Shown here in pieces: positions 3 to 19,234 of a stretch of DNA of 20,000 bases; position 1 is the stretch's first letter; each line of letters starts with the position of its first letter. Under the pieces are notes generated by a model. The model was not told the origin of the DNA. It ran no database searches and worked only from the letters and a program-made list of their open reading frames with translations. Source of the stretch: an uncultured virus (IMG/VR IMGVR_UViG_3300024308_000303) (Duplodnaviria > Heunggongvirae > Uroviricota > Caudoviricetes); IMG/VR virus record IMGVR_UViG_3300024308_000303; one strand, 5' to 3'. The translations under genes and the position numbers were made by a program.

Positions 3-164
3 AGTACATTAGAAATGGTCTGGAATGGAAAACCATATGTAGGAACTAAGAACAAAGATGCCTATCCTTCGTTCTCTGGGTTTAAATTTACAGCACCATG
101 TTCAGAGTTTTTTGATGTTTTACCTGCTGGTTCAACATTACAAATTAAAGTAAATGGCCATTAA
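3..164 (+). CDS. 3' end of a hypothetical protein running in from the window edge (...STLEMVWNGKPYVGTKNKDAYPSFSGFKFTAPCSEFFDVLPAGSTLQIKVNGH*)
   Basis: Open frame from position 3 to TAA at 162-164. The stop overlaps the stop of the convergent ORF 161..496. Confidence 0.65.
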   Translation, partial: STLEMVWNGKPYVGTKNKDAYPSFSGFKFTAPCSEFFDVLPAGSTLQIKVNGH

Positions 165-496
165 TAGAAAGGAAAGTCATCATCGTCATCGTCTGATTGG
201 CCATTTTTTGGCTCATAGAAATCGCTGATTTCTTCTTCTTTCTCAAAGATCTTGATTACTGATTCATCTTCTGTGATTGCAATAGGAACAAATTTATCTT
301 GTTTGTCTACCGAGAAATATCTGTATTCAACTGAATACAATAGATCATCTTGGGCACGATAAATAAACAGCCCTGATGTTTCTTCATGAGAATGCCAAGC
401 ATCATCATAGATAACTTCTTTTACATTATCAATATCAGCTTGTGAAAAGCTTGCAAAGTTATCAGTGAAGAATTCAGAAAGCTCTATTTGGTTCAT
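161..496 (-). CDS. Highly acidic hypothetical protein (111 aa) ending DDDDDDFPFY
   Basis: GGAG Shine-Dalgarno upstream of ATG and extended -10 (TGgTATAAT, -10 at 524-529). About 30 D/E versus 8 K/R. Confidence 0.85.
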   Translation of the reverse strand: MNQIELSEFFTDNFASFSQADIDNVKEVIYDDAWHSHEETSGLFIYRAQDDLLYSVEYRYFSVDKQDKFVPIAITEDESVIKIFEKEEEISDFYEPKNGQSDDDDDDFPFY

Positions 497-1917: not shown

Positions 1918-2679
1918 TTAATAAGTAATAATTTCATTCAAATCAATTTCATTAACAAACTGATCCTTATAAGTATCATATTTTACCAAATATTGTTGAT
2001 AAAAGCTATTTAAATCTTTATTACTTGTATCAAATCCATATGATTTAAGAACATTTGACCCATAATTCATACCAAGGATCATTAAATGAACAAAAGTGTG
2101 CTCTTTTGAAAGATCAATATCTGTTGCCAGTGTTTTAGACATTGCTTTTGCTTTTGGATTTTCATTAATCAAATTAACATTTTGATAGAAAACTCTTGAA
2201 ATAAAAGCATTAGAATGATCGAATTCATATTCTATATATCTACCATTTGAAATGGGAACATGGATTTTAAAATTTGGCAAAAATTTATCACCTGATAGTG
2301 AACAACAAAGTAGATTAGGACAATCAGCAATAAAATGAACACCCAATACTTTAGCAATATCAGTTGATGCAGCAGTATCATTGGGTTCAATAGAACAACT
2401 GATACTGTTATAATCACCAACAGTATCAAAATACATCACTACTTTAACTGGAACGAGCACTTTATTGACAGCAGCTTTAAAAATAGCACTAACCGTCTTA
2501 GCACTGTTTGAGACAAATACAGGAATAGAAGTTGTAGCAGTACATTCAATTTCTACTTCAACTTTATTTGTTGAAGCAATAGATTTAATTTTTAGTTTAA
2601 ATATATCTAAAGCATATTGATATACATCTAAAGGTAATGCGTCCATAAGACGCATTTCTTTGAAAGTGTAACTAAACAT
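1918..2679 (-). CDS. Hypothetical protein (253 aa) with shared C-terminal motif (IDLNEIITY)
   Basis: Long ORF starting 2 nt after the upstream stop. Confidence 0.85.
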   Translation of the reverse strand: MFSYTFKEMRLMDALPLDVYQYALDIFKLKIKSIASTNKVEVEIECTATTSIPVFVSNSAKTVSAIFKAAVNKVLVPVKVVMYFDTVGDYNSISCSIEPNDTAASTDIAKVLGVHFIADCPNLLCCSLSGDKFLPNFKIHVPISNGRYIEYEFDHSNAFISRVFYQNVNLINENPKAKAMSKTLATDIDLSKEHTFVHLMILGMNYGSNVLKSYGFDTSNKDLNSFYQQYLVKYDTYKDQFVNEIDLNEIITY

Positions 2680-2681
2680 AA

Positions 2682-2867
2682 TTATGCCGCCTTTGAAATT
2701 CTTTTTTCAACTTTTTTAAGCTCTTTCTTAGCAATATCAAGAGCCAACTTAAACATAGCAGCAGATTTACCACTATCCTTTGAAATCAAGGTTTTCATGC
2801 CAGCAATATCCTTGATCAATTTATCTTGAGTTTCCTGCAATTTTTGAATATCAACTTCTTTTGCCAT
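2682..2867 (-). CDS. Small Lys-rich coiled-coil protein (61 aa)
   Basis: GGAGG SD before ATG 2867. TGtTGTATAAT-type -10 at 2898-2903. Confidence 0.8.
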   Translation of the reverse strand: MAKEVDIQKLQETQDKLIKDIAGMKTLISKDSGKSAAMFKLALDIAKKELKKVEKRISKAA

Positions 2868-2946
2868 TTTCAAAGTCCTCCATTGCTATTTAATCACATT
2901 ATACAACAAAAAAAGACCTAACACAATAAAAAAAATCTGACGTTTG

Positions 2947-4674
2947 TCAGATCTTGTTTTTAAACTTTTCTTGAATGGCTTGATGGCATAGTTGTTCTAT
3001 TTTACAATCTAAATCAAAATCAATACTATCATGACCTGCACTATCAACAAAACGTTCAAGTTCTTTTTGTAATGCAATACGTTCACGATAAGATAGTTTT
3101 GAATCTACAATATGTAATGGCCCATCTATTAAATGATATCTATTATTTGAAAATTCTTTTTCAAATGATTTTGAGAATAACACAGTATCCTTATAATCAA
3201 TCATAACATCTCGAATAATGGATACAACATTCTCTTTACTCATATTGCCAATTGAAAATCTTGGGTTTAGGCTAAAATTAACTAATATTTCATTTTTAGC
3301 CGCATAATCAAATACAGCTTTGAAAGTGGATTTAACATTGTCAGGATTAGCACACGCTTTTATTATAAGAGAATTTATAGCTAACTCTTTAACTTTATTG
3401 TCTTCATAAAGTTCACACTTTACAAACATGTCAGCATTAAATTGATTTTTAGATACAAAAAATAATGTTTCATCATTAAATGTTAATTCTAATTTATCTG
3501 CATACATACCAAAGTTAATCATATAAGATTCAGTAGTTGATGACCAAGCAGCAGCTAAATCAGAAACATCAACTTTGTCTAACATAAGATAAAATGAATC
3601 AGTATAATTCGTAATAGAATCATGATTACCATTGATATCTAATTCTTTGTTTTGAATAATATCAACATCATGAACAGTATAATCAATAATTGGATATTTA
3701 TCTGAAAGTGTTTCACTTAATTCAAAGAGGGCTTTGCTTGTGATTTCTTCATTTAATATGTCCTCTAATACTGGAGCCGAGGTTACTTTGTCTGTAAAAA
3801 GTTCAACTTGTGTTTTCACATTACTAAGTTCAAAAGAGTTATAAAAAGCCATAGTGATTTCTTTAAGATCAGATGAAGTTAACATTTTACCTATCAATGT
3901 ATTTTCAAATAATGGATTATTTTGAGCTAAGCTTAATAATTCTTCAAAAGAATGATCTCTTAGATGAAGAAAACCATCTACTGCTAAAATTTTATTTAAA
4001 GAATCCCCTTCAAAGAAATCTAGAAGAGATTGATTAGAAATAGGATATGAATAACGTAAAGAAAAATCATGTAATTCACGGATAACATTTAGAGATGCAT
4101 CTTCATAAACATTAGATTTTACTGTTGGATTATGCAGAAGGTCTTTAAACTTAGATAACTGAACAAGAGGTTTAGAATTAATAAATCCATATTCATTTAA
4201 TTCTAAATTGTACTCATTTTGTATAAGAGTATGAAAAATCCAAGTATGACTTAATAAAAGTCCAAGATGATTAACAGCAGTAGAAATTTCAACATCAGAA
4301 AACTCTGTTTGAAGATCATAAAAGTTATCCATATCCTGAACAATGTTATTAAATCTTTCAAGTAATTCCCTATCCTTTTGTGTATGTATAGAATTTGAGA
4401 ATGTAGATTTATCAATTTCTTCATCACGTATAGTGAATTGACGACCATCAAAACGAATCAATTGATATTCAGGATGTGATTTATAATTCAACAACCTTTT
4501 AAGGCTAAAGCTGGAATCAGCATGCTGATGTAAATGAAGATCACCATAAGTTTCTTTTAAAGCAGTATTCTGAATGAGTTGATATAATCCCAATGTAATG
4601 AAATTATTATCAACAATACCATAATGTTTTTTACTGATATCTTTTGCAATTTCTATATAATTTTTTATCTTCAT
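2947..4674 (-). CDS. Large hypothetical protein (575 aa)
   Basis: Long ORF 6 nt downstream of the upstream gene. No recognised motif. Confidence 0.9.
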   Translation of the reverse strand: MKIKNYIEIAKDISKKHYGIVDNNFITLGLYQLIQNTALKETYGDLHLHQHADSSFSLKRLLNYKSHPEYQLIRFDGRQFTIRDEEIDKSTFSNSIHTQKDRELLERFNNIVQDMDNFYDLQTEFSDVEISTAVNHLGLLLSHTWIFHTLIQNEYNLELNEYGFINSKPLVQLSKFKDLLHNPTVKSNVYEDASLNVIRELHDFSLRYSYPISNQSLLDFFEGDSLNKILAVDGFLHLRDHSFEELLSLAQNNPLFENTLIGKMLTSSDLKEITMAFYNSFELSNVKTQVELFTDKVTSAPVLEDILNEEITSKALFELSETLSDKYPIIDYTVHDVDIIQNKELDINGNHDSITNYTDSFYLMLDKVDVSDLAAAWSSTTESYMINFGMYADKLELTFNDETLFFVSKNQFNADMFVKCELYEDNKVKELAINSLIIKACANPDNVKSTFKAVFDYAAKNEILVNFSLNPRFSIGNMSKENVVSIIRDVMIDYKDTVLFSKSFEKEFSNNRYHLIDGPLHIVDSKLSYRERIALQKELERFVDSAGHDSIDFDLDCKIEQLCHQAIQEKFKNKI

Positions 4675-4680
4675 AATTGT

Positions 4681-6492
4681 TTATGCTTGTTTTAAGGTTA
4701 ATTTATTTTTACTTTGCACATCATTCATCTCAAGAATTTTTAATTTCAAGCTTTCATTCATATATGGTTCATATTCTTCAAATTGTAAAGCCAGTATTTT
4801 ATATCTAAAATCAGTTACAATAGGTAATCCAGTAACACTATCATCATTCTTTTTATGAGCAGCATAAAGAGTTCCATCATCATTAATGGTGATACCTATC
4901 ATTGAAAGTGTATCTTCTGATTCTTTAGTAAAGTCATATATAAAATATTGATTCTGATTATTATTGGTATAATCATTAAAATATGTGCTTGAACGAGATA
5001 TGCACCAATTGTTTGTTCCAAGTTTATTACTTTCTTCAAAGTTATTGATTTGTATGATTGCCATATCATCATTGATGAACAATGCTTTTTTATTTATAGT
5101 CTCTAATTGTCTTTCAACAGTGGCTTTACCAAACACAAATAACTCATCGTGAAGTTTTTTAACAAAATCATTGAAGTCTTCTGGGCTTTTCAATAAAGAC
5201 AACTTCTTACCAATATAGTCTTGTATGAATTCTTTTTTTAAGCCTTCATCATAAAACTTTTCAAAGAAAGGATATGCAGTATCAGTATACAAATGTTTAT
5301 TTTTTGCACTTAATATGCTGCCTGCATATTGAGTTACTTTATGTTTTTTAACACTGTTAACAATGAAGTCATCCATTACTTCAAATGATTTTTCGAAAAA
5401 GTCATTTGGAATTCCAATAATTTTCAATACATTGTAATTAGCTATAAAGTTATCCACTGTTGAAATTGCTTTCTCAATTTCACCATCTTCTTTAAATTTA
5501 TTCTTAAATAATTTTGCAAATGTAGGTTGTTTTCTCATTTTGTAATCAATAATGTCTACAAACAATTCATTGATTTTATCTTTAAGTTCAGTGCCACTGT
5601 TAGGGATTAAAAGATTACCATCCCTTTCAATGAAGAGAAAACTAGCATCAGCAAACATTATGGCTTTTTGATTTTTTTGAGAACGGCTTAGCTCAACAGT
5701 TTCAAAAAAAGTTTCATCAATTTTTTCAAATAAGAATTTTTGAACATTTGATAAAGATTCTGTTTCTGTTAATGCTATTGATTTGTAAGATTCTGCATAA
5801 TTTTCCAATGCAGATGGATTATTAATACGCACTTTTGCTAAAATTTTTTCTGTTAACGATACATATTTATCTTTTTGATTAACAAGCCCATTAAATCCAG
5901 ATCGGCAAAGATCTTCAAGAGTTCCACTTTTAAAGAACTCCATATTATCAGTAATATACTTGATAATATCCTTACCTTTATTATTTTTAATATCAAGGGT
6001 ATCACCATAATCTGCGTAAGTAACAGCTTTAAAACGTAGTGTTTCAATCGCTTTTTTAAATTGTTCCACTTTTTTTAGAATGGCTAAACTTTCATTATGT
6101 ATTTGATTGAATGTAGTTAATTCATCACTTATGTCAACATTGTTTTTCTTAGCAAAGTCTATCCATTGGGAGAAAATTAAATTAATACCATTACCAAATG
6201 TTTTTTTATTAGCTCCAATAAAAACATTGTCAAAATTAAAACGAGTAATGGTTAATATATCTGATCGTTCTACTGTATCTTGATAGTAATATTTTTCTAT
6301 AGTATTAAATGTTTTTAATTTTGCTACTTTATCAGGATTATTAATGATATGACGAACCATTGAATTACCTAATCCATAATTACTGTCAAAAAATTCTTCA
6401 AACCCTAAAAAGTTAAATTCCTTTTGATTTATTTGTTCACGGCTATAATGTGTGATGCCATTCGTGTAAGCAGCAAATTTAGATATGTCCAT
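4681..6492 (-). CDS. Hypothetical protein (603 aa) with C-terminal PcfJ-like 'WC' domain
   Basis: IIQINNFEESNKLGTNNWCISRSSTYFNDY...QYFIYD resembles the PcfJ-like domain common in large phages (recognised by eye). Confidence 0.7.
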   Translation of the reverse strand: MDISKFAAYTNGITHYSREQINQKEFNFLGFEEFFDSNYGLGNSMVRHIINNPDKVAKLKTFNTIEKYYYQDTVERSDILTITRFNFDNVFIGANKKTFGNGINLIFSQWIDFAKKNNVDISDELTTFNQIHNESLAILKKVEQFKKAIETLRFKAVTYADYGDTLDIKNNKGKDIIKYITDNMEFFKSGTLEDLCRSGFNGLVNQKDKYVSLTEKILAKVRINNPSALENYAESYKSIALTETESLSNVQKFLFEKIDETFFETVELSRSQKNQKAIMFADASFLFIERDGNLLIPNSGTELKDKINELFVDIIDYKMRKQPTFAKLFKNKFKEDGEIEKAISTVDNFIANYNVLKIIGIPNDFFEKSFEVMDDFIVNSVKKHKVTQYAGSILSAKNKHLYTDTAYPFFEKFYDEGLKKEFIQDYIGKKLSLLKSPEDFNDFVKKLHDELFVFGKATVERQLETINKKALFINDDMAIIQINNFEESNKLGTNNWCISRSSTYFNDYTNNNQNQYFIYDFTKESEDTLSMIGITINDDGTLYAAHKKNDDSVTGLPIVTDFRYKILALQFEEYEPYMNESLKLKILEMNDVQSKNKLTLKQA

Positions 6493-6562
6493 TAAAATTT
6501 TAAATGTTTATCTATTTATTATATCACAATTCAATATTAAAAAAAGAATCTAAATAATTAAA

Positions 6563-6591
6563 TTGATTAAAACATGGCGATATGATAAAAT
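6563..6591 (+). promoter_or_regulatory. sigma70-like promoter
   Basis: TTGATT-N17-TAAAAT with TG extension. Confidence 0.6.
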
Positions 6592-6611
6592 AGCGAAAAA
6601 TGGAGTATAAA

Positions 6612-6854
6612 ATGAGAAAATATTTCAATAGTAGAGCACATTTCATGTGCTATTTAATATGCTTTTTGTTTGCTGTTTCAATATGGATAAGCTTCTACAT
6701 ACATGGAGAATTAGAAACACAATTCAATTTTATGAATATAATGTCATCTCTATTTGCATTGTTTATACTCCCAAGGCATATGTATAAACAGTTACATTTT
6801 GAATCAAGAGATTTAGAAAGAGCAGAGAGACTTAAAAATTCAATAGAAGCATAA
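6612..6854 (+). CDS. Small two-TM membrane protein (80 aa)
   Basis: GGAG 6 nt before ATG 6612. Two hydrophobic segments. Confidence 0.8.
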   Translation: MRKYFNSRAHFMCYLICFLFAVSIWISFYIHGELETQFNFMNIMSSLFALFILPRHMYKQLHFESRDLERAERLKNSIEA

Positions 6855-6880
6855 AAAAAAGGCCATTGAATGGCCTTTTT
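6853..6880. terminator. Bidirectional intrinsic terminator
   Basis: A-run, GGCCA-TTGAA-TGGCC hairpin, T-run, between convergent genes. Confidence 0.85.
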
Positions 6881-6885
6881 ATTTA

Positions 6886-7443
6886 TTAGATTAAATGACC
6901 ATATGCTTTTTCAGTCCAATAACTCAATTGACCATTACGCACACGTTCAGGCATATCTTCTGCTTTGGGATCAATGGAGTAAAGATATTCAAGAACCTTA
7001 ATCCACGTTTCAGCAAAATCATTAACATCACATTCAAACACTCTATTGCCAATAGGATAATTGTAATGCATATTTTTTCCATCCCAATGACAAGTGCCAT
7101 AATGTTCTGATGCATCAATGTGAATGTTACGCCGCCCATCACCATACAAGAACAACTGAAAACGAATTTCTACATGATGACAATCAATCTCTTTACCCAA
7201 CCATTGTTGCTTGTTGTCAATATGGTGATGCATAAGATAGCGAACAAAGCTACCACCAGCATAATCAATTCTAGGATTGCCAACCACATGACGGATGTGA
7301 TTCCGAAGTTCATCAAAGAAATCAATTACTGAAAAATCGTCAGATTTCATTTTTTTAGGTTTAGGCTGTTTATTAGTTTCATAACGCCAAATAAGAACTA
7401 CTGGCAGAATGAATAAAATAACAAAAATAATGGCTCCCCACAT
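6886..7443 (-). CDS. Membrane-anchored His-rich hypothetical protein (185 aa)
   Basis: N-terminal TM followed by a basic stretch. GAGGG SD and its own promoter. Confidence 0.85.
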   Translation of the reverse strand: MWGAIIFVILFILPVVLIWRYETNKQPKPKKMKSDDFSVIDFFDELRNHIRHVVGNPRIDYAGGSFVRYLMHHHIDNKQQWLGKEIDCHHVEIRFQLFLYGDGRRNIHIDASEHYGTCHWDGKNMHYNYPIGNRVFECDVNDFAETWIKVLEYLYSIDPKAEDMPERVRNGQLSYWTEKAYGHLI

Positions 7444-7472
7444 GATGCTGCCCTCATGATTTAAGATGACCT

Positions 7473-7501
7473 ATTATACCAAAAGTAACCTAAATAGGCA
7501 A
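7473..7501 (-). promoter_or_regulatory. sigma70-like promoter
   Basis: TTGCCT-N17-TATAAT with TG extension. Confidence 0.75.
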
Positions 7502-7507
7502 CATTTT

Positions 7508-7533
7508 AAAAAGTAACCTGTAGAGGTTACTTT
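7508..7533 (-). terminator. Hairpin / probable terminator after 7532..8299
   Basis: Perfect 10-bp inverted repeat AAAGTAACCT-N4-AGGTTACTTT ending in U5 on the minus strand. Confidence 0.6.
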
Positions 7534-8299
7534 AATTAGAAATGAACTTATTGAATTCTTTTTCTGACACTGTATCAAAATGAAACATATATTCTTGTAA
7601 AAGATCACTTTTGAATTTTTCTTTCACAGTTCCACTAAATTTCTTTGGTTCAGAAAACCCAAATGTATTATTAGAATATTCAGATTTGAAATTAAAGGGA
7701 TCATTTGGATTATAACTAATATATGATTCACCATTTTCTTCAATGACAGAAATACCTGCAAGTATGTCTAATTCTTTTTCCTTTTCAAAGCAATAAATTC
7801 CAATATCATAATATAAATTTTTATTAAAATCCACGTCTTTAAAAATTTTATTATCTTTTATAAATGTACCTGACAAAATTATATTTTTATAATAATTTGA
7901 TTTAAATTTAACATCATACTCATTACTGAACAATTTTTCGATATTATTAATCACATCCTGTACATGATTGTTGCCTAAAAAGAACTTGGCAGCCTCAATA
8001 CCAGGGCGATTGACGAAACGCATGTCACAAAGGGAAAAACTATATTGATTTGGGGTTTCATCGGAAAACCCTGACAAATAAAGATGGATAGAAAGTTCGT
8101 CAGAACCCAAAAGACATTTCAATTTATATGAAGATCCATCACCTTTAACTCGATATAAATTTTTTTCAGGTATGATTCTTATACAATTAATATTAAATTT
8201 ACTAAATAAATAATCTTTAATATCTTTTTTAAATTGTTTACATAAAGACATTGCGGGCACATAAATGAAATCTTCAGATTTATTTAATTCATTATTCAT
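7532..8299 (-). CDS. Hypothetical protein (255 aa)
   Basis: Long ORF with an upstream promoter. Confidence 0.85.
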   Translation of the reverse strand: MNNELNKSEDFIYVPAMSLCKQFKKDIKDYLFSKFNINCIRIIPEKNLYRVKGDGSSYKLKCLLGSDELSIHLYLSGFSDETPNQYSFSLCDMRFVNRPGIEAAKFFLGNNHVQDVINNIEKLFSNEYDVKFKSNYYKNIILSGTFIKDNKIFKDVDFNKNLYYDIGIYCFEKEKELDILAGISVIEENGESYISYNPNDPFNFKSEYSNNTFGFSEPKKFSGTVKEKFKSDLLQEYMFHFDTVSEKEFNKFISN

Positions 8300-8331
8300 A
8301 ATTTAGCTCACTATAGAATTTTGAGTTTTAT

Positions 8332-8360
8332 ATAATACAGCATAATACTTGATTATTCAA
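8332..8360 (-). promoter_or_regulatory. sigma70-like promoter
   Basis: TTGAAT-N17-TATTAT. Confidence 0.6.
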
Positions 8361-8373
8361 GTAAAATTATAAT

Positions 8374-9108
8374 TCAATATAAAATTATTTTTATTAAATC
8401 AATTTCATTTTGTGTAAATTGCATTCTGTGTAGCAAAGATTTATCAATGTTAGTATAGCTTTCAAAAAAAAAGGCATCCATCGAATAAAAAATTTGTTTT
8501 CTATCCAAAAAATATAGTATGTTATTATGTACCAATAAAAGACAACTTGGAATAATATCAAAAAAGAGAAATGCTGATTCATCATTAACGAGCTTTAACA
8601 CAGATAAATCGTGTGAATTCTCAAATAACCAGTCAGTATATTTGAAATATATGGAAGTTATCATGCCTACTTTGAAATCATAATTTTCATGGACTAATAA
8701 TGAAGGTCTATCTATATATTGATTATTATCATTGTCAAAATATATTTTAGAATCAATACCAACACCATAATGACCATTATGATAGCTTGGTTGATAAACA
8801 AAAACAATTTTCATACCATGAATAAAGTTTTTCTTTAAATAATTTAATATTAAATGTTTAATCAATTCTAAGTTAGATTCTATACTTATCAAATGCTCAA
8901 ATCTAATATCAAAAAAATATTCACCAAATATTATTCTTTCAATATTTAAATTAAAATCATTAACAGTAGAAATAATTGCATAATTATAAGAAACTATCTT
9001 TGTATTAGTTATTGGTCTAATTACAGGTACAGACGTAGCACCTTGAATGAAGTATTCAGGAACCATGCTTTCAAAGTATACTTCTGAGTTATTAATTGGC
9101 CTAATCAT
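8374..9108 (-). CDS. Hypothetical protein (244 aa) with shared C-terminal motif (IDLIKIILY)
   Basis: Long ORF, operon-packed. Confidence 0.85.
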   Translation of the reverse strand: MIRPINNSEVYFESMVPEYFIQGATSVPVIRPITNTKIVSYNYAIISTVNDFNLNIERIIFGEYFFDIRFEHLISIESNLELIKHLILNYLKKNFIHGMKIVFVYQPSYHNGHYGVGIDSKIYFDNDNNQYIDRPSLLVHENYDFKVGMITSIYFKYTDWLFENSHDLSVLKLVNDESAFLFFDIIPSCLLLVHNNILYFLDRKQIFYSMDAFFFESYTNIDKSLLHRMQFTQNEIDLIKIILY

Positions 9109-9112
9109 GTTA

Positions 9113-9796
9113 CTAGGTTTTCGAGTTTAAAAAAGTTTTTCTTATGATATAAGGCATGTTCTTAATTTCTTCATTATAAATCAATTGAAGTTCTCCCTGA
9201 TATTTAGCAACTTCTTCCTTTTTACTAGTAAACAAGCCTCTCATACGATTTGTAAGAAGATCTGGTTTATGTTTTACATTCATTTTCATTGAATATAGTT
9301 CATCTTGTAAACTTTTAATTTTTTCTTTAAGTTCCACAACACGCTTAATAAGCTTACGAACTGTTTTGCTGACTTCTTGTTCAGTAACATGTTTACTTTG
9401 TTTAATTCCAAATAACTTCACAAAAAAATCAATGGATGGATTTTTCAAAAATTCTTTAAGTTTAGGTCTAAATTCATTAATAGAATAACCATTGGAATAA
9501 TCAACCGCCCCACGAATACCCGCCCCAGCCCTAATGACAGTTTCTCCTTGTTTGAAATCAAAAGCTAATGAAATTGTATTGACATGTCGCATATTTGATT
9601 TTTCATCACGATAAGTCTCACCAGAACCTAACACTAATAGATAATCAAATGATATAGGTCTTTTATAATATGTTTTCGCACCACCAAAACTATAACCACC
9701 AGACCGACCATTTAATTCAAAATGAGAAAAGCCTTCTAATTCCTTTAAAGTAGAAATTTCAGTTTTCAACAGTTGCATAGGCGTTATTTTATTCAA
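9113..9796 (-). CDS. Hypothetical protein (227 aa, TTG start) with C-terminal coiled coil
   Basis: Long ORF with a heptad-like K/E/L region near the C-terminus. Confidence 0.8.
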   Translation of the reverse strand: MNKITPMQLLKTEISTLKELEGFSHFELNGRSGGYSFGGAKTYYKRPISFDYLLVLGSGETYRDEKSNMRHVNTISLAFDFKQGETVIRAGAGIRGAVDYSNGYSINEFRPKLKEFLKNPSIDFFVKLFGIKQSKHVTEQEVSKTVRKLIKRVVELKEKIKSLQDELYSMKMNVKHKPDLLTNRMRGLFTSKKEEVAKYQGELQLIYNEEIKNMPYIIRKTFLNSKT

Positions 9797-9840
9797 AAGA
9801 TATGTCTCACAAAAAATAAAAAATTACAATAAATGGGAAA

Positions 9841-10230
9841 TTAGTTATCACATACTGCATCCCATTCAAGTTCACGTAAATGAGCTTCCAGAATCATAGC
9901 CGCTTCACAAGTAATGAAAACAGAATGATCTTGAATAAGACGTACTTCAAGTGGTCTTTCACATTCCACACTATATCCATATTTTTCAAAAAGCTCAACA
10001 GTTGAAAGCCTCGGTTTAGAAACTTCCAATTCATCTTCTTCTCGTTCAAGCAATTCAATAACAAGTAAGCTCAATACAACAGGAGAATTTTTGATTTTAG
10101 ATCCATCAACTGAACTAACAGAAAATTGTGTATCATTAGTGAAGTTATTAACAGTCCAGCCATGACGCTTTAAAAGATTTCTAATTTCTTTATCTTCATT
10201 AAGATTGTAAGTTTTAATTGCACTATTCAT
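9841..10230 (-). CDS. Hypothetical protein (129 aa)
   Basis: AGGAG SD overlapping the upstream TAG. Confidence 0.85.
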   Translation of the reverse strand: MNSAIKTYNLNEDKEIRNLLKRHGWTVNNFTNDTQFSVSSVDGSKIKNSPVVLSLLVIELLEREEDELEVSKPRLSTVELFEKYGYSVECERPLEVRLIQDHSVFITCEAAMILEAHLRELEWDAVCDN

Positions 10231-10238
10231 ATAAACTC

Positions 10239-10928
10239 CTATAATTCTTGCATTGATTTTAGTTCAACAAGTTCTGGTAAACTTTTCATCATTTCATTAA
10301 TATTTGAACAATTGTATTCTTTTTCATTAATAAATTCAAGAACAAAATTATCAATGGAAAATTTACTCAACAAATACTCTTTAGAAAAATTTTTATAATT
10401 AACTGAAACATAACTCTCACCACCCTTCATCCGTATATAAAATGACAATTTAAATTGCATGCCATAATAGGTTACAAAAACAGGATAGTGTTGATGTTTA
10501 CCCAAATTTATATAAGGAACATCAATATCAGAAACATATTTATGCTTGTAAAGTGTAGTAAATAATTGATGAAAAATATGTTTATTTGTTCCATACTTAA
10601 ACGAATAATACATATTCAGATATAGAATAGCATTTTTTGATTTTCCTTTTTCTTTTGATTCAATGAAACTAAGAATTAGTCTATTAGGAAAATAATCATT
10701 ATATTCTATTTCATAATCATAAGGTAAAGACATCACAATATTTAAGTTCAAAATATAATAATGAGAACCATCAGCAAATAATTTAGCATTTTTAAAATAT
10801 TCTGTTACATAAGAATAAGTATCCTTATGAACAGAATTCTTTTCAACAATAAAAAGAGAATTGATATTTACAGAAGGATAGAACTCCTTAATCAAATCAA
10901 TTTCTTTCAATGGAATAATCGTTTTCAC
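10239..10928 (-). CDS. Hypothetical protein (229 aa, GTG start) with shared C-terminal motif (VELKSMQEL)
   Basis: Start overlaps the upstream stop (GTGA). Confidence 0.85.
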   Translation of the reverse strand: MKTIIPLKEIDLIKEFYPSVNINSLFIVEKNSVHKDTYSYVTEYFKNAKLFADGSHYYILNLNIVMSLPYDYEIEYNDYFPNRLILSFIESKEKGKSKNAILYLNMYYSFKYGTNKHIFHQLFTTLYKHKYVSDIDVPYINLGKHQHYPVFVTYYGMQFKLSFYIRMKGGESYVSVNYKNFSKEYLLSKFSIDNFVLEFINEKEYNCSNINEMMKSLPELVELKSMQEL

Positions 10929-11140
10929 AATAATCCCTGATCTTTCAATTGAAGCTCAATTTCAAGCAGAGCAGCAGTTACTTGATCATCAAAATCAAGT
11001 TCTATCAGTGCTGTCTTTTCAATGGCATCAAAATCTAAAGCATCGAATGCTTCATCAATTTGAACTTCGGTAAAATCTTTGTTGTTTTTCCTGAAAACAT
11101 TTTCGACATCATCTTGTGTAATTTCAAAAGCTAGCGACAT
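10925..11140 (-). CDS. Small acidic helical protein (71 aa from MSLAFEIT)
   Basis: GGTGG before ATG 11140. The longer track start (11275) overlaps the real upstream gene. About 19 D/E versus 5 K/R. Confidence 0.8.
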   Translation of the reverse strand: MSLAFEITQDDVENVFRKNNKDFTEVQIDEAFDALDFDAIEKTALIELDFDDQVTAALLEIELQLKDQGLL

Positions 11141-11348
11141 AATTCCACCGTTGAGAATAAGAATGAGTTTGTGGTTTATGCTCTGGTTGACGCTCAACCA
11201 TTGCGTAAAGTTTAGGGTCAAACAAATGTTGAATATGATTGTTTTCAGTTTCTGGTTTAGGAGTGATACTTTCATAGACTGAAAGCAGTTGTTGACGAAT
11301 TTTCAAAAAATCTTCATGATTGCGATAAGGGATGCCAACAATATTCAT
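11124..11348 (-). CDS. Hypothetical protein (74 aa)
   Basis: AGGAG 7 nt before ATG, directly after a promoter. Confidence 0.75.
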   Translation of the reverse strand: MNIVGIPYRNHEDFLKIRQQLLSVYESITPKPETENNHIQHLFDPKLYAMVERQPEHKPQTHSYSQRWNYVASF

Positions 11349-11378
11349 GGTGTAGCTCCTGTTCTATTTTGAGATTTG

Positions 11379-11407
11379 ATTATAACAAATAAAACAGGAG
11401 AATACAA
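11379..11407 (-). promoter_or_regulatory. sigma70-like promoter
   Basis: TTGTAT-N17-TATAAT with TG extension. Confidence 0.75.
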
Positions 11408-11415
11408 TCAATATT

Positions 11416-12120
11416 TCACTGTGGCGAACCCATAAATGCTGGCATTACCTTATCTGCCAACTTACCGTTTTGTTTAGCATTTTTAAGCCAATGATCGGAA
11501 TCATCTTGAACATGGTTTGCCCGAACAAATTTAGCCACACAGTTTTTGAAGTCATTTCGGAAGAAACCATCAACAGTACGAATTACATAACCTTCGGAAA
11601 GGTCAAAGTTGATTGTCTTTTGAAGATTCATTAAAACTTTCTCATCATACAACCCACGGTACAATACTTTTGGCATAGGCAAATCAAAAAGTTCTGCATA
11701 TTCCACAATATCATCGTAATCGAGGCAATAATCATCTTCTGAACCTTCTACATCACTCCAGATGGAAAAGAGGTAGAAATAGCTATTCAATGAATTATCT
11801 GGGTAACGAATAGCATGTTCTGCAAATAAGTTTTCACCAACAATTTTCATATTGTCAGGAATATCATAACGCAAAGCAGAATGCATTTTAGTAACCCAAG
11901 CACGAGTCCAATTTGAAGGGCTATCCAAACTACGTGCATGAATGAAGTCACGCGACATGGTGGTGTTTTCACCATCAAGCTTTTCTGTAACAACAATCAT
12001 TTTCCCTTCAAGATGACGCATATTAGGAAACACTTTATCATCAGATTGAATGCCCAAACTCCATGGAACATGATGTGTCTTAGGGAATTTTCTTTTTGAT
12101 ACACTGGCTGATGCTTTCAT
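11416..12120 (-). CDS. ATP-dependent RNA ligase (stand-alone nucleotidyltransferase domain, Rnl2-like / RNA_ligase family)
   Basis: Motif I TEKLDGEN, III GEN, IIIa FYLFSIW, IV EGYVIR, V AKFVR. N-terminal KFPKTHHVPWS is typical of this family. Confidence 0.9.
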   Translation of the reverse strand: MKASASVSKRKFPKTHHVPWSLGIQSDDKVFPNMRHLEGKMIVVTEKLDGENTTMSRDFIHARSLDSPSNWTRAWVTKMHSALRYDIPDNMKIVGENLFAEHAIRYPDNSLNSYFYLFSIWSDVEGSEDDYCLDYDDIVEYAELFDLPMPKVLYRGLYDEKVLMNLQKTINFDLSEGYVIRTVDGFFRNDFKNCVAKFVRANHVQDDSDHWLKNAKQNGKLADKVMPAFMGSPQ

Positions 12121-12152
12121 TTTCGTATACTCTTATTTTCTAAAGTCTGTGT

Positions 12153-12215
12153 AGTATATCAAAAATAATCTCTTGAGTCAATTGTCTTGCTAAAAAGGCT
12201 TTATTTTGATATAAT
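12153..12215. promoter_or_regulatory. Back-to-back divergent sigma70-like promoters
   Basis: Minus strand TTGACT-N17-TATACT (12181-12153). Plus strand TTGCTA-N17-TATAAT (12187-12215). Both have a TG extension. Confidence 0.8.
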
Positions 12216-12239
12216 CATCCAATCAAATAGAATGAGGTT

Positions 12240-12848
12240 ATGACAATGCGTAAAATTTTTTATCCATCGGTAATTATGCTTTTGTTAGCTATTGCTGCAT
12301 TGATTGGTTATTACGTTGAAACCAAATCATTTATTCCATTAATTGCCACTGTACCAATGGTTCTTGGAAGTGGCTTTCTTGTTTATGTCACATTCAAAAG
12401 AAATTTGAACATCATTAGATCAGAGTTTCATTATATAGTGATGGCTTTTTGTTATGGTATGTATTCCGTAGGATTGGGGCGATATGACCATACAGTTTTA
12501 GCTTTCGTAGTCATTGCTGCTGCTGTCAGCTATCTTGCATATTCTGATTTCAAATGCTTTGAAAAGGAATATCAAGAAAATGAACTGACTAAACAACTTG
12601 GTGTAGCACCAGATTATATCTATTATCGTGGTTGTGATTTTAGAGCACTCAAAGAAATGATTCATAAAAAATATAGTAGAGAAAAAGACAAGGTTGAATA
12701 TCGTCATAATGGTATTATATTTGATCGATTGGGTATTAAAAATGGGCCAAGTTACGATGTTTTAAAACGTTATTTCCAAGAAACAGAAACACACCCCAAA
12801 GACTTTAAAAAAGAAGATATTGAAGTCTTAAACATGTATACTATTTAA
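12240..12848 (+). CDS. Four-TM membrane protein with soluble C-terminal domain and shared C-terminal motif (IEVLNMYTI)
   Basis: Four hydrophobic segments in the first ~100 aa. GAGG SD (ATG 12246 is an alternative start). Confidence 0.85.
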   Translation: MTMRKIFYPSVIMLLLAIAALIGYYVETKSFIPLIATVPMVLGSGFLVYVTFKRNLNIIRSEFHYIVMAFCYGMYSVGLGRYDHTVLAFVVIAAAVSYLAYSDFKCFEKEYQENELTKQLGVAPDYIYYRGCDFRALKEMIHKKYSREKDKVEYRHNGIIFDRLGIKNGPSYDVLKRYFQETETHPKDFKKEDIEVLNMYTI

Positions 12849-12859
12849 TCAAGGATATC

Positions 12860-13831
12860 ATGATGATAAATGAACAGGTTATTAAAACAATTAATGAACG
12901 TGCTGACATTTTAAAAGAAATCATGCATCGTATTTGTATGCCATATGCTCTGATTGAATCACATATCAGAGATATTAAAAATACAAATGTATTGAGATAT
13001 AAATGGCCAATTCCGGGTGTTGATAAAAACATCGTTTATGAATTTGATAAACATGAGATTGATTATAAAGTACAAAACTCAACTATTGAACTGGAAAGTG
13101 GTCGTTTATTTGTAATGTTTGATCAAGATTTCAAATTAACTGGAATTGAAGCTGAATATAAAGTAGCTAATAATTATGTTTTTTGTGTAAAATATGATGA
13201 AAAAGCTGAATACAAAGGTGTGAGTGCCAGACATTATCGATATACCAAAGAAGAAATTGTAGAAAAAATAAACAATATTTTCAACAAACTTGAAACAAAG
13301 TTTAAAACAAAATCTTCTGCTATACAGGAAATGAAAGATTCTAACTACACTATTGTTAATGAAACTTCCAACTGTACTGAAATAATGTACCAAGATAATA
13401 ATGGGTTAATGAATCCATCAAGAAATATTGTAACAGAAGCCGTAGAACCACCATATGACTTCATGAAAGGTGTGACTGCATATTTTACACTATCATTTGA
13501 TGGTGATATGAATATTGAAAAAATGTATTTTGCAAGCAACGCTTATAGAAAGAATGAAGCCGTAAAATACACCCTACATTACAATAAAGATTTAAAAATC
13601 GAATCATTAAATTGTATCCATATAAAAAACAAAATAAAATCAGTAATAACAATTCATCCAGAAGGACTAAGTGAGCAAGAAGTCTTATTTAATCTTGAGA
13701 TAAAAAGATTAATAGACCAGTCAGTAGAAGCAAGAGAACTGTTGCCAGAATATACAACAGTAGGCGTATATGATTTTAATAATGATTCTTTTAACCAAAG
13801 AATTGAATTACTTAAAATGATGATGTTTTAA
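12860..13831 (+). CDS. Hypothetical protein (323 aa), probable paralog of 13841..14482, with shared C-terminal motif (IELLKMMMF)
   Basis: AGGA SD, long ORF, C-terminal similarity to the next gene. Confidence 0.9.
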   Translation: MMINEQVIKTINERADILKEIMHRICMPYALIESHIRDIKNTNVLRYKWPIPGVDKNIVYEFDKHEIDYKVQNSTIELESGRLFVMFDQDFKLTGIEAEYKVANNYVFCVKYDEKAEYKGVSARHYRYTKEEIVEKINNIFNKLETKFKTKSSAIQEMKDSNYTIVNETSNCTEIMYQDNNGLMNPSRNIVTEAVEPPYDFMKGVTAYFTLSFDGDMNIEKMYFASNAYRKNEAVKYTLHYNKDLKIESLNCIHIKNKIKSVITIHPEGLSEQEVLFNLEIKRLIDQSVEARELLPEYTTVGVYDFNNDSFNQRIELLKMMMF

Positions 13832-13840
13832 GGTTGCAAA

Positions 13841-14482
13841 ATGAATAAAGTAAACATTAAAGACTTAATGAAAAAATATATGGATGGATCACAAAGCCCA
13901 AATAAAAATGATGCTGTTCTTTTGCATGAGCAAAAAATAGCCAGAAACTCTACTTTTTTTATGCCAATTACTAATAGCACAGTAGTAAATAATGATTTTA
14001 TAAAATCAAATAAAGATTTATTTAAAAAAGAGCTATTGAAAATTTTTTCTTTAACAGGATCTATATTGCTGGAAAATGTAAAATCTGGATTTAAGCATTG
14101 TATTATTGATCATTGCATAGAAGAAGTTTTTGTAAGCTATGATTATACAAATGGAATAGAAAACAAAACCATTAAATCTTTTGAAATTGTCCATAAAGAT
14201 AAATCTAAAAGAAATCAAATAAGATATATATACAATTCAGATTTAACATTAGAATGTATTAATTATCAGAAGCTTGGTCAATATGGTATAGTATTTGGTA
14301 TTACGGATATTGATATGTGTTTTTCACCTAATGATGAATACTATGAAGTTATCATTAAAGCTCACATACTAGAAGAAAAGATTGTAAAAGAAGTATTGCC
14401 TGAAAGCATAATTCCATCTGCTTACAAATTTGATGAAGATTGGAAAAAACGAGTTGAATTATTTAAAATGATGTTCTTATAA
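13841..14482 (+). CDS. Hypothetical protein (213 aa) with shared C-terminal motif (VELFKMMFL)
   Basis: AAGG SD, operon-packed. Confidence 0.9.
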   Translation: MNKVNIKDLMKKYMDGSQSPNKNDAVLLHEQKIARNSTFFMPITNSTVVNNDFIKSNKDLFKKELLKIFSLTGSILLENVKSGFKHCIIDHCIEEVFVSYDYTNGIENKTIKSFEIVHKDKSKRNQIRYIYNSDLTLECINYQKLGQYGIVFGITDIDMCFSPNDEYYEVIIKAHILEEKIVKEVLPESIIPSAYKFDEDWKKRVELFKMMFL

Positions 14483-14510
14483 TTGACAAAACATAACTGC
14501 AATTTATAAT
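14483..14510 (+). promoter_or_regulatory. Consensus sigma70 promoter
   Basis: TTGACA-N16-TATAAT. Confidence 0.8.
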
Positions 14511-14539: not shown

Positions 14540-14749
14540 ATGCAATATTTTAATGATAAAGGCGAGTTCGCAAGAGTTAATGTATTTGATAGAGATGGAT
14601 TTATTTTACAAGATGTACAAAAAGAACTAAATAACGTACATATCAATTCATACCCAGCACGTTCTGATTTAGTTAAATGTTATTATGCCATAAAAATTTG
14701 GCCATCAATGACCAGTTCTACACATTCTGCTATTTTTGCAAAAATATAA
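14540..14749 (+). CDS. Hypothetical protein (69 aa)
   Basis: TAAGGAG SD, own promoter and terminator. Confidence 0.85.
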   Translation: MQYFNDKGEFARVNVFDRDGFILQDVQKELNNVHINSYPARSDLVKCYYAIKIWPSMTSSTHSAIFAKI

Positions 14750-14768
14750 GCCTCTGATGAGGCTTTTC
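14748..14768 (+). terminator. Intrinsic terminator
   Basis: AAGCCTC-TGAT-GAGGCTT followed by TT. Confidence 0.65.
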
Positions 14769-14833: not shown

Positions 14834-15922
14834 ATGGAATTGTACGTAATTGGTATCCCTATTGCTATTTTTCTTCCACTAATCGCTCGGCTTATATTCC
14901 CTCACAAGGTCACTTTGAAGGAATATTTAATGGTTTCTGGTATCAACATCGTCGTGTTGCTATTTGTATCAATGGCAATGAACATTTCATCAACTTATGA
15001 CACTGAAGTCTGGAGTGGTGAAGTGACTGAAAAATATTCCAAAAGAGTAAGTTGTGAACATTCTTACGACTGTAACTGCCGTGATGAACGTACCGGCACT
15101 GACAGTAAAGGTAATCCTACTTATTCCAGAGTATGTGACACATGCTATGAACATGCCTATGATGTAAATTGGGTTGTTAGAAGTAACGTTGGTTACGAAA
15201 TTATTAGTCGAGTAGACCGCCGTGGACTGAAAGAACCACCTCGTTATAGTAAAGTTCAAATTGGTGAACCATATGCTACTACTTATGGATTTAAAAACTA
15301 TATTCTGGCATCACCAGATACATTGTTTGTGAACTCTATGTCATTAGTAGAAAATTACAAAGGTATTATGCCAGCGTATCCAAGTATTTTTGACTACTAT
15401 AGAATCAACCGTGTTATTGGTATTGATAAAGCTGTTGACCCTGATTTAAATATCATGCTAAATGACCAAATGCGTAAATGGGGGCCAACTAAACAAGCTA
15501 ACATCATTGTTGTAGTTGTCAGTGAGAAATACACTCAAGAATTCTATGAGGCACTTCAAGCTCATTGGAAAGGTGGTAAAAAGAATGATGTAGTTATTGT
15601 CGTTCAAGTTGATCAATCTAATAAAGTTGGTTGGACTCGCGTATTCTCTCGTGCTGATCAAGGTGTATTTGATAAATCAGTTGAATATGATGTAAATAAT
15701 ATGGGAACATTTGATTCAAGGAAATTCGTAGACATTGTTAATCAAAATGTTAAAGAACGTTTCCATAGAGTAAACTTTGAAAAGTTCAAGTATCTGCTAG
15801 ATGATTATCGTCCATCTTACAAGGCAATCTTTATTGGACTTATCTTTGCACTTCTTATCAATATTGGACTTAACATTTTCATCGTGAAACAAGATGTTTT
15901 TGGTGATGAAAATAGAAGATAA
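14834..15922 (+). CDS. Membrane protein (362 aa): two N-terminal TMs, Cys-rich hairpin, TPM-like alpha/beta domain, C-terminal TM
   Basis: CEHSYDCNC...CDTCYEH. ANIIVVVV...WKGGKKNDVVIVV resembles the TPM-domain core (WxxGxKxxdnGvlilv). AGGAG SD. Confidence 0.7.
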   Translation: MELYVIGIPIAIFLPLIARLIFPHKVTLKEYLMVSGINIVVLLFVSMAMNISSTYDTEVWSGEVTEKYSKRVSCEHSYDCNCRDERTGTDSKGNPTYSRVCDTCYEHAYDVNWVVRSNVGYEIISRVDRRGLKEPPRYSKVQIGEPYATTYGFKNYILASPDTLFVNSMSLVENYKGIMPAYPSIFDYYRINRVIGIDKAVDPDLNIMLNDQMRKWGPTKQANIIVVVVSEKYTQEFYEALQAHWKGGKKNDVVIVVQVDQSNKVGWTRVFSRADQGVFDKSVEYDVNNMGTFDSRKFVDIVNQNVKERFHRVNFEKFKYLLDDYRPSYKAIFIGLIFALLINIGLNIFIVKQDVFGDENRR

Positions 15923-16006: not shown

Positions 16007-16615
16007 ATGATTAAAACTCGTCAAAAAGGTGAAATTTCCACTGGTTTAATGGTCGGTATTGCCTTTCTTTTGTTCATTCTGTTTGGACTTGGTGGCTTCA
16101 TGTTGTCTGTTGTTGGAGTAAAAGACACATTCTCAAGGGTTCAAAACGGTATTAGTACAAGTTATGAAGACTACAAAACTGTACATACTGCTCATGTCCT
16201 GAAAATTCAAGGTATGGCTCAAGTTCCAAAAATGGCTGCTGGGCATATTAAAGAAATCATTACGGCTGCTCTTGAAGGTCGATATGGTGATAAAGGCTCT
16301 CAAGCTGTGTTCCAAGCTATTCAGGAACAAAATCCAAATGTACCACCAGATCTGTATCAGAATCTGAGTAAGGAAATGAGTGGTGGTCAAGAAGACATTA
16401 AAGCCGCTGCTCGTAAAGTAAATGACCAAAAGAACATTGCCTATAACCAACTTGATGCAACATACAGTGGTTTTGTTCTAAAAAGTCTTTATGATTATCC
16501 AACCAAGAACATTGGTTATGAAGGTGGTAAAGATGACTACAAGGTTGCTGTATCAGAGTTGACTAATGAAGCTGTGAAAACAGGTATTGATAAAGGTGTT
16601 AATATCCTAAATTAA
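16007..16615 (+). CDS. LemA-like membrane-anchored helical protein (202 aa)
   Basis: Single N-terminal TM then a helical domain with IQEQNPNV..DLYQNL..E...Y, resembling LemA (ExYPxL...fxxLqxel). TAAGGAG SD. Confidence 0.65.
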   Translation: MIKTRQKGEISTGLMVGIAFLLFILFGLGGFMLSVVGVKDTFSRVQNGISTSYEDYKTVHTAHVLKIQGMAQVPKMAAGHIKEIITAALEGRYGDKGSQAVFQAIQEQNPNVPPDLYQNLSKEMSGGQEDIKAAARKVNDQKNIAYNQLDATYSGFVLKSLYDYPTKNIGYEGGKDDYKVAVSELTNEAVKTGIDKGVNILN

Positions 16616-17236: not shown

Positions 17237-17263
17237 AAAGAACACGACTGTGTTCTTTTTTTT
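17237..17263 (+). terminator. Intrinsic terminator
   Basis: AAAGAACAC-GACT-GTGTTCTTT followed by a T-run. Confidence 0.8.
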
Positions 17264-18096: not shown

Positions 18097-18357
18097 ATGA
18101 TTCGTTTATTTATTACTGGAACGCCTGAAAACTTAATGTTAATTATGACATTAGTTATGGCTACTTTAATGTTTACTATTCTTGGCTTTATAAAACTATT
18201 TGAAAAATTTGAATTGTTTGGTTTCAAGAAAAAGAAAGAAGATTCATTCACTATTTGCTTAAATGGAAAGAATTATACAATTGACCCTGAATCTGATATC
18301 TGGGTTGTTGATCAAATGGCTGCTCAGGATGCAGCAAGAGAAAGGAAAGAGGTGTAA
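18097..18357 (+). CDS. Small single-TM protein (86 aa)
   Basis: AGGA SD, hydrophobic segment followed by KKKK. Confidence 0.8.
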   Translation: MIRLFITGTPENLMLIMTLVMATLMFTILGFIKLFEKFELFGFKKKKEDSFTICLNGKNYTIDPESDIWVVDQMAAQDAARERKEV

Positions 18358-18358
18358 C

Positions 18359-19207
18359 ATGAAAAATACCTATAAAATTTGCATGAAACTGAATTATGCT
18401 CAAGAAAGTGCAGAGAAACAAGAGTCTATTGATAAACTCATCAGTTTTATCAAAAACGTCATGAAAAATCATGGATGGCGTGAAGCTGATGATTATGATT
18501 CTACAATTGATTATGTATTCTCAATTGGTGGTGATGGTACAATGATGCACACTATGCAAACTCATGTCCATACACAATCAGTTGTAATTGGAATTAACGC
18601 TGGAAATGTAGGGTTCTTGACTCCATATAGCATTGAAAACGTATATGACATGTCTGTATTTAAGTTCCTACAGAAAAATCATAAATCACGGATCGAATAC
18701 CGAACTATTCTGAAAAGCAGCTTTAAGAATAATAATGAAAGTTTGATGGCTGTAAACGAATTTTCCATTACATCTAATAAGCTAAACAAGATTTGTGAAT
18801 ACTCAATAGAAATTGAACACAATGGTCAAGTTAGCCCTGCTGGTCGCTACAAAGCGGATACACTGTTGATTTCAGGCCCTTGTGGCTCTACAGCATACAA
18901 CATGAACGCTGGTGGTGCGATTGTAGACCCTACAGTACGTTGTATGCAGATTATGATGATTGCACCTACTATCTTGGGTATTCGTCCTATTATTATTGGC
19001 AGAAACTCAACAATTCGTATTCGTATGATGAGTGATGCAATGATGAGTGCTGATGGCCAAAACATTCGTGAAATCATGGCAAGTGATGATGAAGCAATCA
19101 ATATTACACTGGTTAACGAAGAATGCCGAGTAATGCTGCCAAATGATTGGAACTTCTACAGCATGCTAAGTAATAAACTTCATTGGAATAATGGTAACGC
19201 AGTATAA
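18359..19207 (+). CDS. nadK: NAD(+) kinase (282 aa from ATG 18359)
   Basis: GGDGT, GINAGNVGFL, NE and GSTAYNMNAGG motifs. GAGGT SD before ATG 18359. Confidence 0.93.
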   Translation: MKNTYKICMKLNYAQESAEKQESIDKLISFIKNVMKNHGWREADDYDSTIDYVFSIGGDGTMMHTMQTHVHTQSVVIGINAGNVGFLTPYSIENVYDMSVFKFLQKNHKSRIEYRTILKSSFKNNNESLMAVNEFSITSNKLNKICEYSIEIEHNGQVSPAGRYKADTLLISGPCGSTAYNMNAGGAIVDPTVRCMQIMMIAPTILGIRPIIIGRNSTIRIRMMSDAMMSADGQNIREIMASDDEAINITLVNEECRVMLPNDWNFYSMLSNKLHWNNGNAV

Positions 19208-19208
19208 G

Positions 19209-19234
19209 AAAAGCTGGCTTAGGCCAGCTTTTTT
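19209..19234. terminator. Bidirectional intrinsic terminator
   Basis: AAAAGCTGGC-TTAG-GCCAGCTTTTTT between convergent genes. Confidence 0.88.

Follow-up and report, generated by a model that had tools for sequence, protein, structure and literature searches.

Six proteins encoded in a stretch of DNA from an uncultured virus of the Caudoviricetes (IMG/VR record IMGVR_UViG_3300024308_000303; 20,000 nucleotides, the whole of which is called the window here) end in one kind of nine-residue tail, [IV][DE][LV]xx[MI]xx[YFIL]-COOH. The motif is rare in the sequences searched, it is better conserved between orthologues than the protein bodies that bear it, and the bodies have no detectable similarity to one another. 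Its hydrophobic residues, at -7, -4 and -1 counted from the C-terminus, have the same spacing as those in the tails of several T4-family DNA polymerases. Together these properties support the tail as a selected, protein-level feature. The reading favoured here, to which a probability of roughly 0.55 is given, is that it is a portable C-terminal docking peptide for some hub.

The window is AT-rich (GC content 0.24 to 0.36) and its open reading frames (ORFs) are densely packed. Twenty-nine ORFs, with 5,974 residues in all, were taken as gene-like. Re-reading them confirmed what an earlier note on this DNA had reported for the six proteins (carriers 1 to 6; Table 1): their last nine residues, their coordinates, their location on both strands and their use of all three stop codons. 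It likewise confirmed that the RNA ligase, NAD kinase and LemA-like protein encoded in the window lack the motif. No carrier matched a Pfam, PHROG, NCBIfam or PADLOC family above noise. Five of the carriers are soluble and carrier 4 is a membrane protein. The four transmembrane helices that had been claimed for it are in part clear, since three hydrophobic segments are distinct and the fourth is weaker, consistent with about four helices in residues 6-104. These are followed by a C-terminal domain of about 100 residues, which is probably cytoplasmic by the positive-inside rule.

Within the window the motif is confined to C-termini. It ends 6 of the 29 gene-like ORFs and has no internal match in their residues; 0.003 C-terminal matches are expected from composition, and 20,000 shuffles never gave more than one. 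Over all six frames it matches at 6 of 39,996 positions, every one a carrier C-terminus, and when the ends of the 497 stop-to-stop segments with 20 or more residues are scanned, the same six carriers are again the only matches. Because the pattern was fitted to the six tails, each tail was also scored against the other five as a guard against post-hoc fit. In this leave-one-out scoring each fell in the top 0 to 10 of 5,682 other 9-mers from window proteins, the weakest being that of carrier 3 (VELKSMQEL, rank 10). A relaxed hydrophobic/acid pattern gave six C-terminal and two internal matches.

The highest-scoring non-carrier C-terminus, in five of six nine-residue and two of six 14-residue leave-one-out tests, belongs to the ORF at 10925-11275 (minus strand), which overlaps carrier 3 by four bases (ATGA) and has an acidic C-terminal half ending ...LLEIELQLKDQGLL. 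This end contains an IEL start whose register is shifted by two residues from that of the tail motif, and it scores far below the carriers.

Beyond the window, the full pattern ended none of 659 mechanically called ORFs in 118 unrelated metagenome loci (371 of these ORFs from loci with less than 35% GC), none of the 576 ORFs of the complete Mosigvirus phage AV112 and no ORF in four viral loci. The core alone, [LV]xx[MI]xx[YFIL]-COOH, ends 6 of 29 window proteins as against 3 of the 659 metagenome ORFs. Among 49 ORFs from 50 kb of a huge phage (735 kb, 32% GC) it ends none, and since the full pattern implies the core, that region must lack the full pattern as well. Codon-level tail patterns had no match in two contig scans, and looser codon patterns gave chance matches only in 118 metagenome stretches and the four viral loci, as did tblastn of two 40-residue tails against cultured phages (E 2 to 6). 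A 40-column tail profile run against 1.84 billion representatives found two proteins at E ≤ 0.001, both of them close orthologues, and of the 1,916 candidates from a word-indexed tail search ('longer' lengths), the 10 returned were without exception own proteins or orthologues; short-motif searches are insensitive at such database size, and the profile nulls do not show absence elsewhere.

The motif reaches further upstream than its nine residues, as an aromatic residue (F or W) stands at -13 or -14 in five of the six right-aligned tails. In carriers 5 and 6 the common module is about 29 residues long and starts at LPE (LPEY in carrier 5). Codons at the conserved positions vary between carriers (ATT/GTT, GAT/GAA, TTG/TTA/CTA/GTC), and the sequence after the stop differs too, being a coupled downstream gene, a promoter or a terminator. 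Since both codons and downstream contexts differ, constraint acts on the peptide, and a DNA-level element within the 3' ends, such as a promoter or terminator, is ruled out.

In protein searches the carriers matched close relatives only, which belong to two or three related lineages, and the Atlas gave no usable match (carrier 2 included). Carrier 4 has an orthologue, P0006, with an identical tail, and P0010 (70% identity to carrier 6) is identical over the last nine residues. The carrier 3 orthologue P0011 ends in IELKSMQEL, and carrier 5 is represented by P0002 (89%) and P0003 (61%; tail IEVLKMMIF). Carrier 1 has three orthologues, P0008 (99%), P0009 (85-86%) and P0014 (57%). In P0009 the tail is kept and the stop is lost, so that five further residues, EQLES, follow (end ...IINYEQLES, ...IDLNEIINYEQLES), and P0014 keeps the tail and adds a single N (...IDLDKIINYN). 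The exact distance from the stop that had been claimed for the motif thus holds in all six window carriers and is relaxed by one or five residues in these two orthologues, which indicates that a free carboxylate at an exact position is not required, at least in the carrier 1 family.

Conservation was counted between each carrier and the most distant orthologue of its family, for five families, none having been found for carrier 2. Identity was 765/1070 over the bodies compared with 124/150 over the last 30 residues (Fisher P = 0.002) and 39/45 over the last nine (P = 0.015). Changes between orthologues at -9, -8, -7, -4 and -1 stay within residue class, as in IEVLKMMIF, IDLDKIINY and IELKSMQEL.

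The claim that the carrier bodies differ was upheld by three methods, and detectable similarity among carriers appears to consist of the tail module only. BLASTP among the carriers gave one significant pair, carriers 5 and 6 (E 1e-5). With hhalign on small family alignments the same pair had a probability of 68.7 and all others ≤ 1.1; once the last 30 residues were cut, it fell to 0.1 and every pair was ≤ 1.8. Its Smith-Waterman z was 6.2, 2.2 and 0.1 after trimming 0, 9 and 30 residues, respectively. For bodies without their last 30 residues the mean z was 0.34 between carriers (15 pairs), 0.18 between carriers and controls (48 pairs) and 0.49 between controls (28 pairs), so that trimmed carriers are no more alike than controls. 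No similarity outside the tail module was detectable by hhalign or Smith-Waterman comparison, although remote homology below detection is possible.

These comparisons bear directly on the view that the carriers are all paralogues from a single, very rapidly evolving family, in which just the last helix can still be recognised because it has a structural role, for example in folding or self-association, and has no common external reader. Carriers 5 and 6 adjoin each other and have some 29 C-terminal residues in common, as such a family would lead one to expect. Carriers 1 to 3 are of similar length (253, 244 and 229 residues), as are two proteins without the tail, encoded at 7532-8299 and 19233-20000 (255 residues each). 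The last two have degenerate look-alike ends that do not fit the motif, and upstream of this end the 19233-20000 protein has a PExTT..V..F stretch found also in carrier 5. However, the trimmed bodies resemble one another no more than controls do, the carrier 5/6 signal in hhalign is lost with the tail, and the membrane architecture of carrier 4 is different. Moreover, a helix that serves structure alone rarely retains a fixed acid in its hydrophobic face and a fixed distance from the C-terminus across dissimilar bodies. A family of paralogues is therefore regarded as unlikely. The terminal multigene families (paralogue arrays) of large viruses and of jumbo phages are similar in having many small orphan genes that sit together in accessory regions and have one short conserved segment in common. 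Unlike them, the carriers show no detectable body similarity, and their genes occur on either strand with other genes in between.

The shape of the tail was approached by modelling and by periodicity. AlphaFold2 was run on the carrier 5 family from a five-sequence alignment, in the numbering of the 322-residue P0001 (one less than the window ORF). The model has a mean predicted local distance difference test score (pLDDT) of 58.9. In it residues 130-290 form a beta-rich domain (pLDDT 76-88), residues 295-304 score below 50 and a helix is predicted for 308-321 (pLDDT 50-58), an arrangement weakly consistent with a tethered helix. A Foldseek search of this model against the PDB gave no meaningful fold match (best E 2.9e-3 at a template modelling score, TM, of 0.11). 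Calculated over the last 14 residues, the hydrophobic moment at 120 degrees exceeds that at 100 degrees in five of the tails, suggesting a three-residue repeat of the kind seen in short 3-10-like docking turns, and the conserved acid at -8 would fall inside the hydrophobic arc of an ideal alpha-helix. The amphipathic terminal helix of the earlier note is accordingly disfavoured: the periodicity better matches a repeat of three, and a helix is predicted at low confidence. An amphipathic helix that targets membranes was also rejected, since four tails are net acidic, two are net basic (+1 and +2) and the 100-degree moment is low in most.

A docking peptide has a parallel in T4-family phages. In one account (PMC2988020), the ligands of their sliding clamp, gp43, gp55 and gp33, are different proteins that carry short C-terminal peptides and bind one hub, gp45. 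In phage records the T4 tails read ...ASLDFLFG (gp43) and ...SLDFLYEAND (gp55). The exact spacing L(-7)xxM(-4)xxF/I(-1) occurs in the polymerase tails of a Mosigvirus (KKASLFDMFDF), a Jiaodavirus (SSLLDMFDF) and an Aeromonas phage (NNLFDMFDI), while an Acinetobacter phage has ...SSLEDLFDF and a Kuttervirus ...VNLLSMMGKKG; polymerase tails of a Cronobacter, a Vibrio and a Synechococcus phage were also compared. In AV112 the core is found at the end of one ORF among the 576, that of the DNA polymerase, and two further proteins have tails of LDFL type, the late sigma factor and a 112-residue annotated transcriptional regulator that is taken to be the gp33 homologue. The window tails resemble these clamp tails in being short hydrophobic and acidic peptides at or near the C-terminus of different proteins and, for the Mosigvirus, Jiaodavirus and Aeromonas phage polymerases, in the -7/-4/-1 spacing. 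In addition, T4 gp55 bears four residues after its motif, just as the carrier 1 orthologues bear one or five.

The earlier note knew of no described system with this motif. That statement has to be narrowed, as the -7/-4/-1 core is the spacing of several clamp-binding polymerase tails of T4-family phages. No paper describing one C-terminal tail common to many unrelated phage proteins was found in the literature searched.

From these features we infer that the tail docks, that it has a single reader and what that reader may be. The common partner that the earlier note had proposed receives some support from the selection acting on the tail, from the dissimilar bodies and from a tail that is kept better than the body, all as expected of a handle; the partner itself is a candidate only. 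A sliding clamp of gp45 type is the leading candidate because L-x-x-M-x-x-F-COOH is the exact spacing of several T4-family clamp-binding polymerase tails. By this analogy the identification is tentative, with the odds clearly against it.

As a docking peptide, the tail would comprise a core of I or V at -9, D or E at -8, L or V at -7, M or I at -4 and either an aromatic or an aliphatic residue at -1, usually with an aromatic residue at -13 or -14, attached to otherwise unrelated, fast-evolving accessory proteins. It may form a short helix or a 3-10-like turn from which the -7, -4 and -1 side chains would enter a hydrophobic pocket of the hub, the acid at -8 perhaps pairing with a basic rim of that pocket. 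If the hub is a clamp, it would be encoded elsewhere in the element and would hold the carriers on phage DNA, which the membrane carrier could in turn link to the membrane.

Several results weigh against docking on a clamp or on any other hub. The full pattern fits none of the eight T4-family polymerase tails. The window tails have I/V and D/E at -9 and -8, where the polymerases have small or polar residues, and lack the acids found at -5 and -2 in the polymerases. AV112 was picked for its fitting polymerase tail, so that the one match to the core among its 576 ORFs is a measure of rarity and not of an unbiased association. Carriers make up 6 of the 29 window proteins, whereas there are three clamp-tailed proteins in the whole of AV112. 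The carriers are orphans without polymerase or sigma function, one of them a membrane protein, and no recognisable DNA- or RNA-related domain that would suggest action on DNA or transcription was found in any of the six. Searches with Pfam, PHROG, NCBIfam and PADLOC recognised no clamp, polymerase or other hub in the window. The T4 gp55 tail is joined to its body by a variable linker, according to PMC2988020. In contrast, the segment before the tail is conserved in the carriers, between orthologues as well as in the neighbouring carrier, and this is true even of the stretch with pLDDT below 50 that precedes the tail helix in the carrier 5 model. Finally, the tail is modelled at pLDDT 50-58 in one protein only, the carrier 1 model being unusable (mean pLDDT 38).

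Were the tail a docking peptide, its reach might be considerable. It is possible, with odds somewhat against it, that about one in five orphan proteins is tagged with one handle read by a single hub, either the clamp acting as a general landing pad or an undescribed sorting or assembly machine. In the former case accessory proteins by the dozen would be brought together on phage DNA along with a membrane anchor, and the "toolbelt" idea of T4, which has three or four clients, would be extended to a large and rapidly changing set. In the latter, giant phages would have a sorting or assembly system that has yet to be described. For most huge-phage genes no function is known, and a common handle would sort many of them as clients of one hub. 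Tail peptides used as bait would offer a direct experimental route to the hub and to the roles of the carriers.

Removal rather than recruitment of the carriers has also to be considered. C-terminal tags read by proteases or their adaptors are an established kind of signal (ssrA, the XB peptide of SspB), and the tail could be a degradation or timing tag by which a host or phage protease or adaptor clears the carriers, probably early proteins, at a set time. Its position at, or no more than five residues from, the C-terminus suits such a tag, membrane proteins too can be protease substrates, and the carrier units have sigma-70-like promoters, including a perfect consensus (TTGACA, 16 nucleotides, TATAAT) at 14483-14510 on the plus strand, right after the carrier 6 stop. 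However, sigma-70-like sites are no commoner in the window than in shuffles (123 compared with a mean of 126.9). The tail is unlike known C-terminal tags with Ala-Ala ends or basic ends of MuA type. The conserved module is long (14 to 29 residues, with an acid and an upstream aromatic residue) and better suited to a docking helix. A degradation signal that needs a free carboxylate is at odds with P0009 and P0014, which keep the motif with five and one residues after it, and tolerance of such extensions argues against tags of this kind in general. A role in degradation is considered quite improbable.

Least probable of all, and indeed very unlikely, is an address for capsid packaging, ejection or secretion like the encapsulin peptides or the T4 capsid-targeting sequence. 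The T4 sequence is N-terminal and is cleaved off. In encapsulin systems one short terminal peptide addresses unrelated proteins to one protein shell, as PMC7925596 describes, and a C-terminal peptide common to unrelated proteins together with a nearby gene for a virion-protein family (phrog_1383) would agree with packaging. However, carrier 4 is a polytopic membrane protein, to which packaging or secretion, both suggested in the earlier note, is ill-suited, and phrog_1383, the sole recognised virion-protein family of the window, lacks the tail. Pfam and PHROG searches found no shell, portal or secretion ATPase gene in the window, no capsid or encapsulin family is encoded there, no shell gene adjoins the carriers and the cargo would not all be soluble. 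No likeness of the tails to known packaging signals was seen, with no dedicated search made. A prohead-protease LxE site was also considered and fits one tail only.

The carriers lie in two divergent units, one on the minus strand in which carriers 3, 2 and 1 are downstream of an RNA ligase gene and one on the plus strand with carriers 4 to 6 (Table 1). The intergenic region contains sigma-70-like sites at 12181-12153 (-), 12187-12215 (+) and 12206-12233 (+), which are consensus matches only. The perfect match beyond carrier 6 precedes a 69-residue ORF (14540-14749) that is ended by a bidirectional terminator-like hairpin at 14748-14765. Hairpins of this type also mark transcription-unit boundaries at 6856-6880 and 17237-17258, and intrinsic-terminator-like sites are enriched overall (24 compared with 6.2 expected in shuffles). 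The T4 late-promoter signal TATAAATA, found 3 times compared with 4.7 expected, was rejected.

Table 1. Carriers of the C-terminal tail and neighbouring features, in window coordinates
Feature	Position	Strand	Description
Carrier 1	1918..2679	-	Orphan, 253 residues; tail IDLNEIITY, coded at 1921-1947; stop TAA
Carrier 2	8374..9108	-	Orphan, 244 residues; tail IDLIKIILY, coded at 8377-8403; stop TGA
Carrier 3	10239..10928	-	Orphan, 229 residues, GTG start; tail VELKSMQEL, coded at 10242-10268; stop TAG
RNA ligase	11416..12120	-	PF09414, E 6e-25; conserved jumbo-phage gene; without tail
Divergent intergenic region	12121..12239		Between minus-strand and plus-strand units
Carrier 4	12240..12848	+	Membrane protein, 202 residues; tail IEVLNMYTI, coded at 12819-12845; stop TAA
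Carrier 5	12860..13831	+	323 residues; tail IELLKMMMF, coded at 13802-13828; stop TAA
Carrier 6	13841..14482	+	213 residues; tail VELFKMMFL, coded at 14453-14479; stop TAA
phrog_2087 gene	14834-15922	+	E 4e-108; matches 492 phage records; without tail
phrog_1383 gene	16007-16615	+	LemA-like virion protein; without tail

The element to which the window belongs is AT-rich and has jumbo and huge phages as relatives. The best phage match of its RNA ligase is in a 735-kb uncultured phage (LR756501, 47.5% identity), and the next are in phages of 317 to 485 kb. The C-terminal part (residues 471-555; ...NNWCISRS...YFIYDF...) of a 603-residue orphan at 4681-6492 (minus strand) weakly resembles unannotated regions of 634- to 642-kb uncultured phages (LR745206 and LR756502; 32-35% identity, E 6e-5 to 4e-4). 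In the jumbo phage XacN1 the genes for RNA ligase, phrog_2087 and phrog_1383 are contiguous (148473-151256). Compared with XacN1, the ligase gene of the window is inverted, and carriers 4 to 6 and the 69-residue ORF stand between it and the phrog_2087 and phrog_1383 genes, as would be expected for lineage-specific accessory genes. The window had no megablast match among cultured phages, an exact 40-mer taken from it did not occur in viral contigs, and no relatives of carrier 5 and the phrog_2087 protein were found in viral, genome and metagenome collections.

Other C-termini of possible interest were noted. In LR756501, two overlapping plus-strand ORFs (7514-7921 and 7914-8342; 135 and 142 residues) have near-identical ends, ...DPYGEEVWDD and ...DPYGEEEWYD, and are probably tandem paralogs with an acidic-aromatic C-terminus. 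In the window itself, a 111-residue orphan at 161-496 (minus strand), without a Pfam family, ends in ...GQSDDDDDDFPFY, an acidic run followed by an aromatic/Pro end. This is reminiscent of the C-terminal tip of bacterial single-stranded DNA-binding protein, which docks on many partners, and it could be a second type of docking tail or a decoy.

The NAD kinase, which is unusual in phages, is encoded at 18263-19207 (plus strand) and is matched at 25-31% identity by 14 records of the phage collection. An 86-residue ORF with one hydrophobic segment (18097-18357, plus strand) overlaps the first 95 bases of the kinase ORF, whose true start may lie further downstream because the Pfam match begins only at residue 33.

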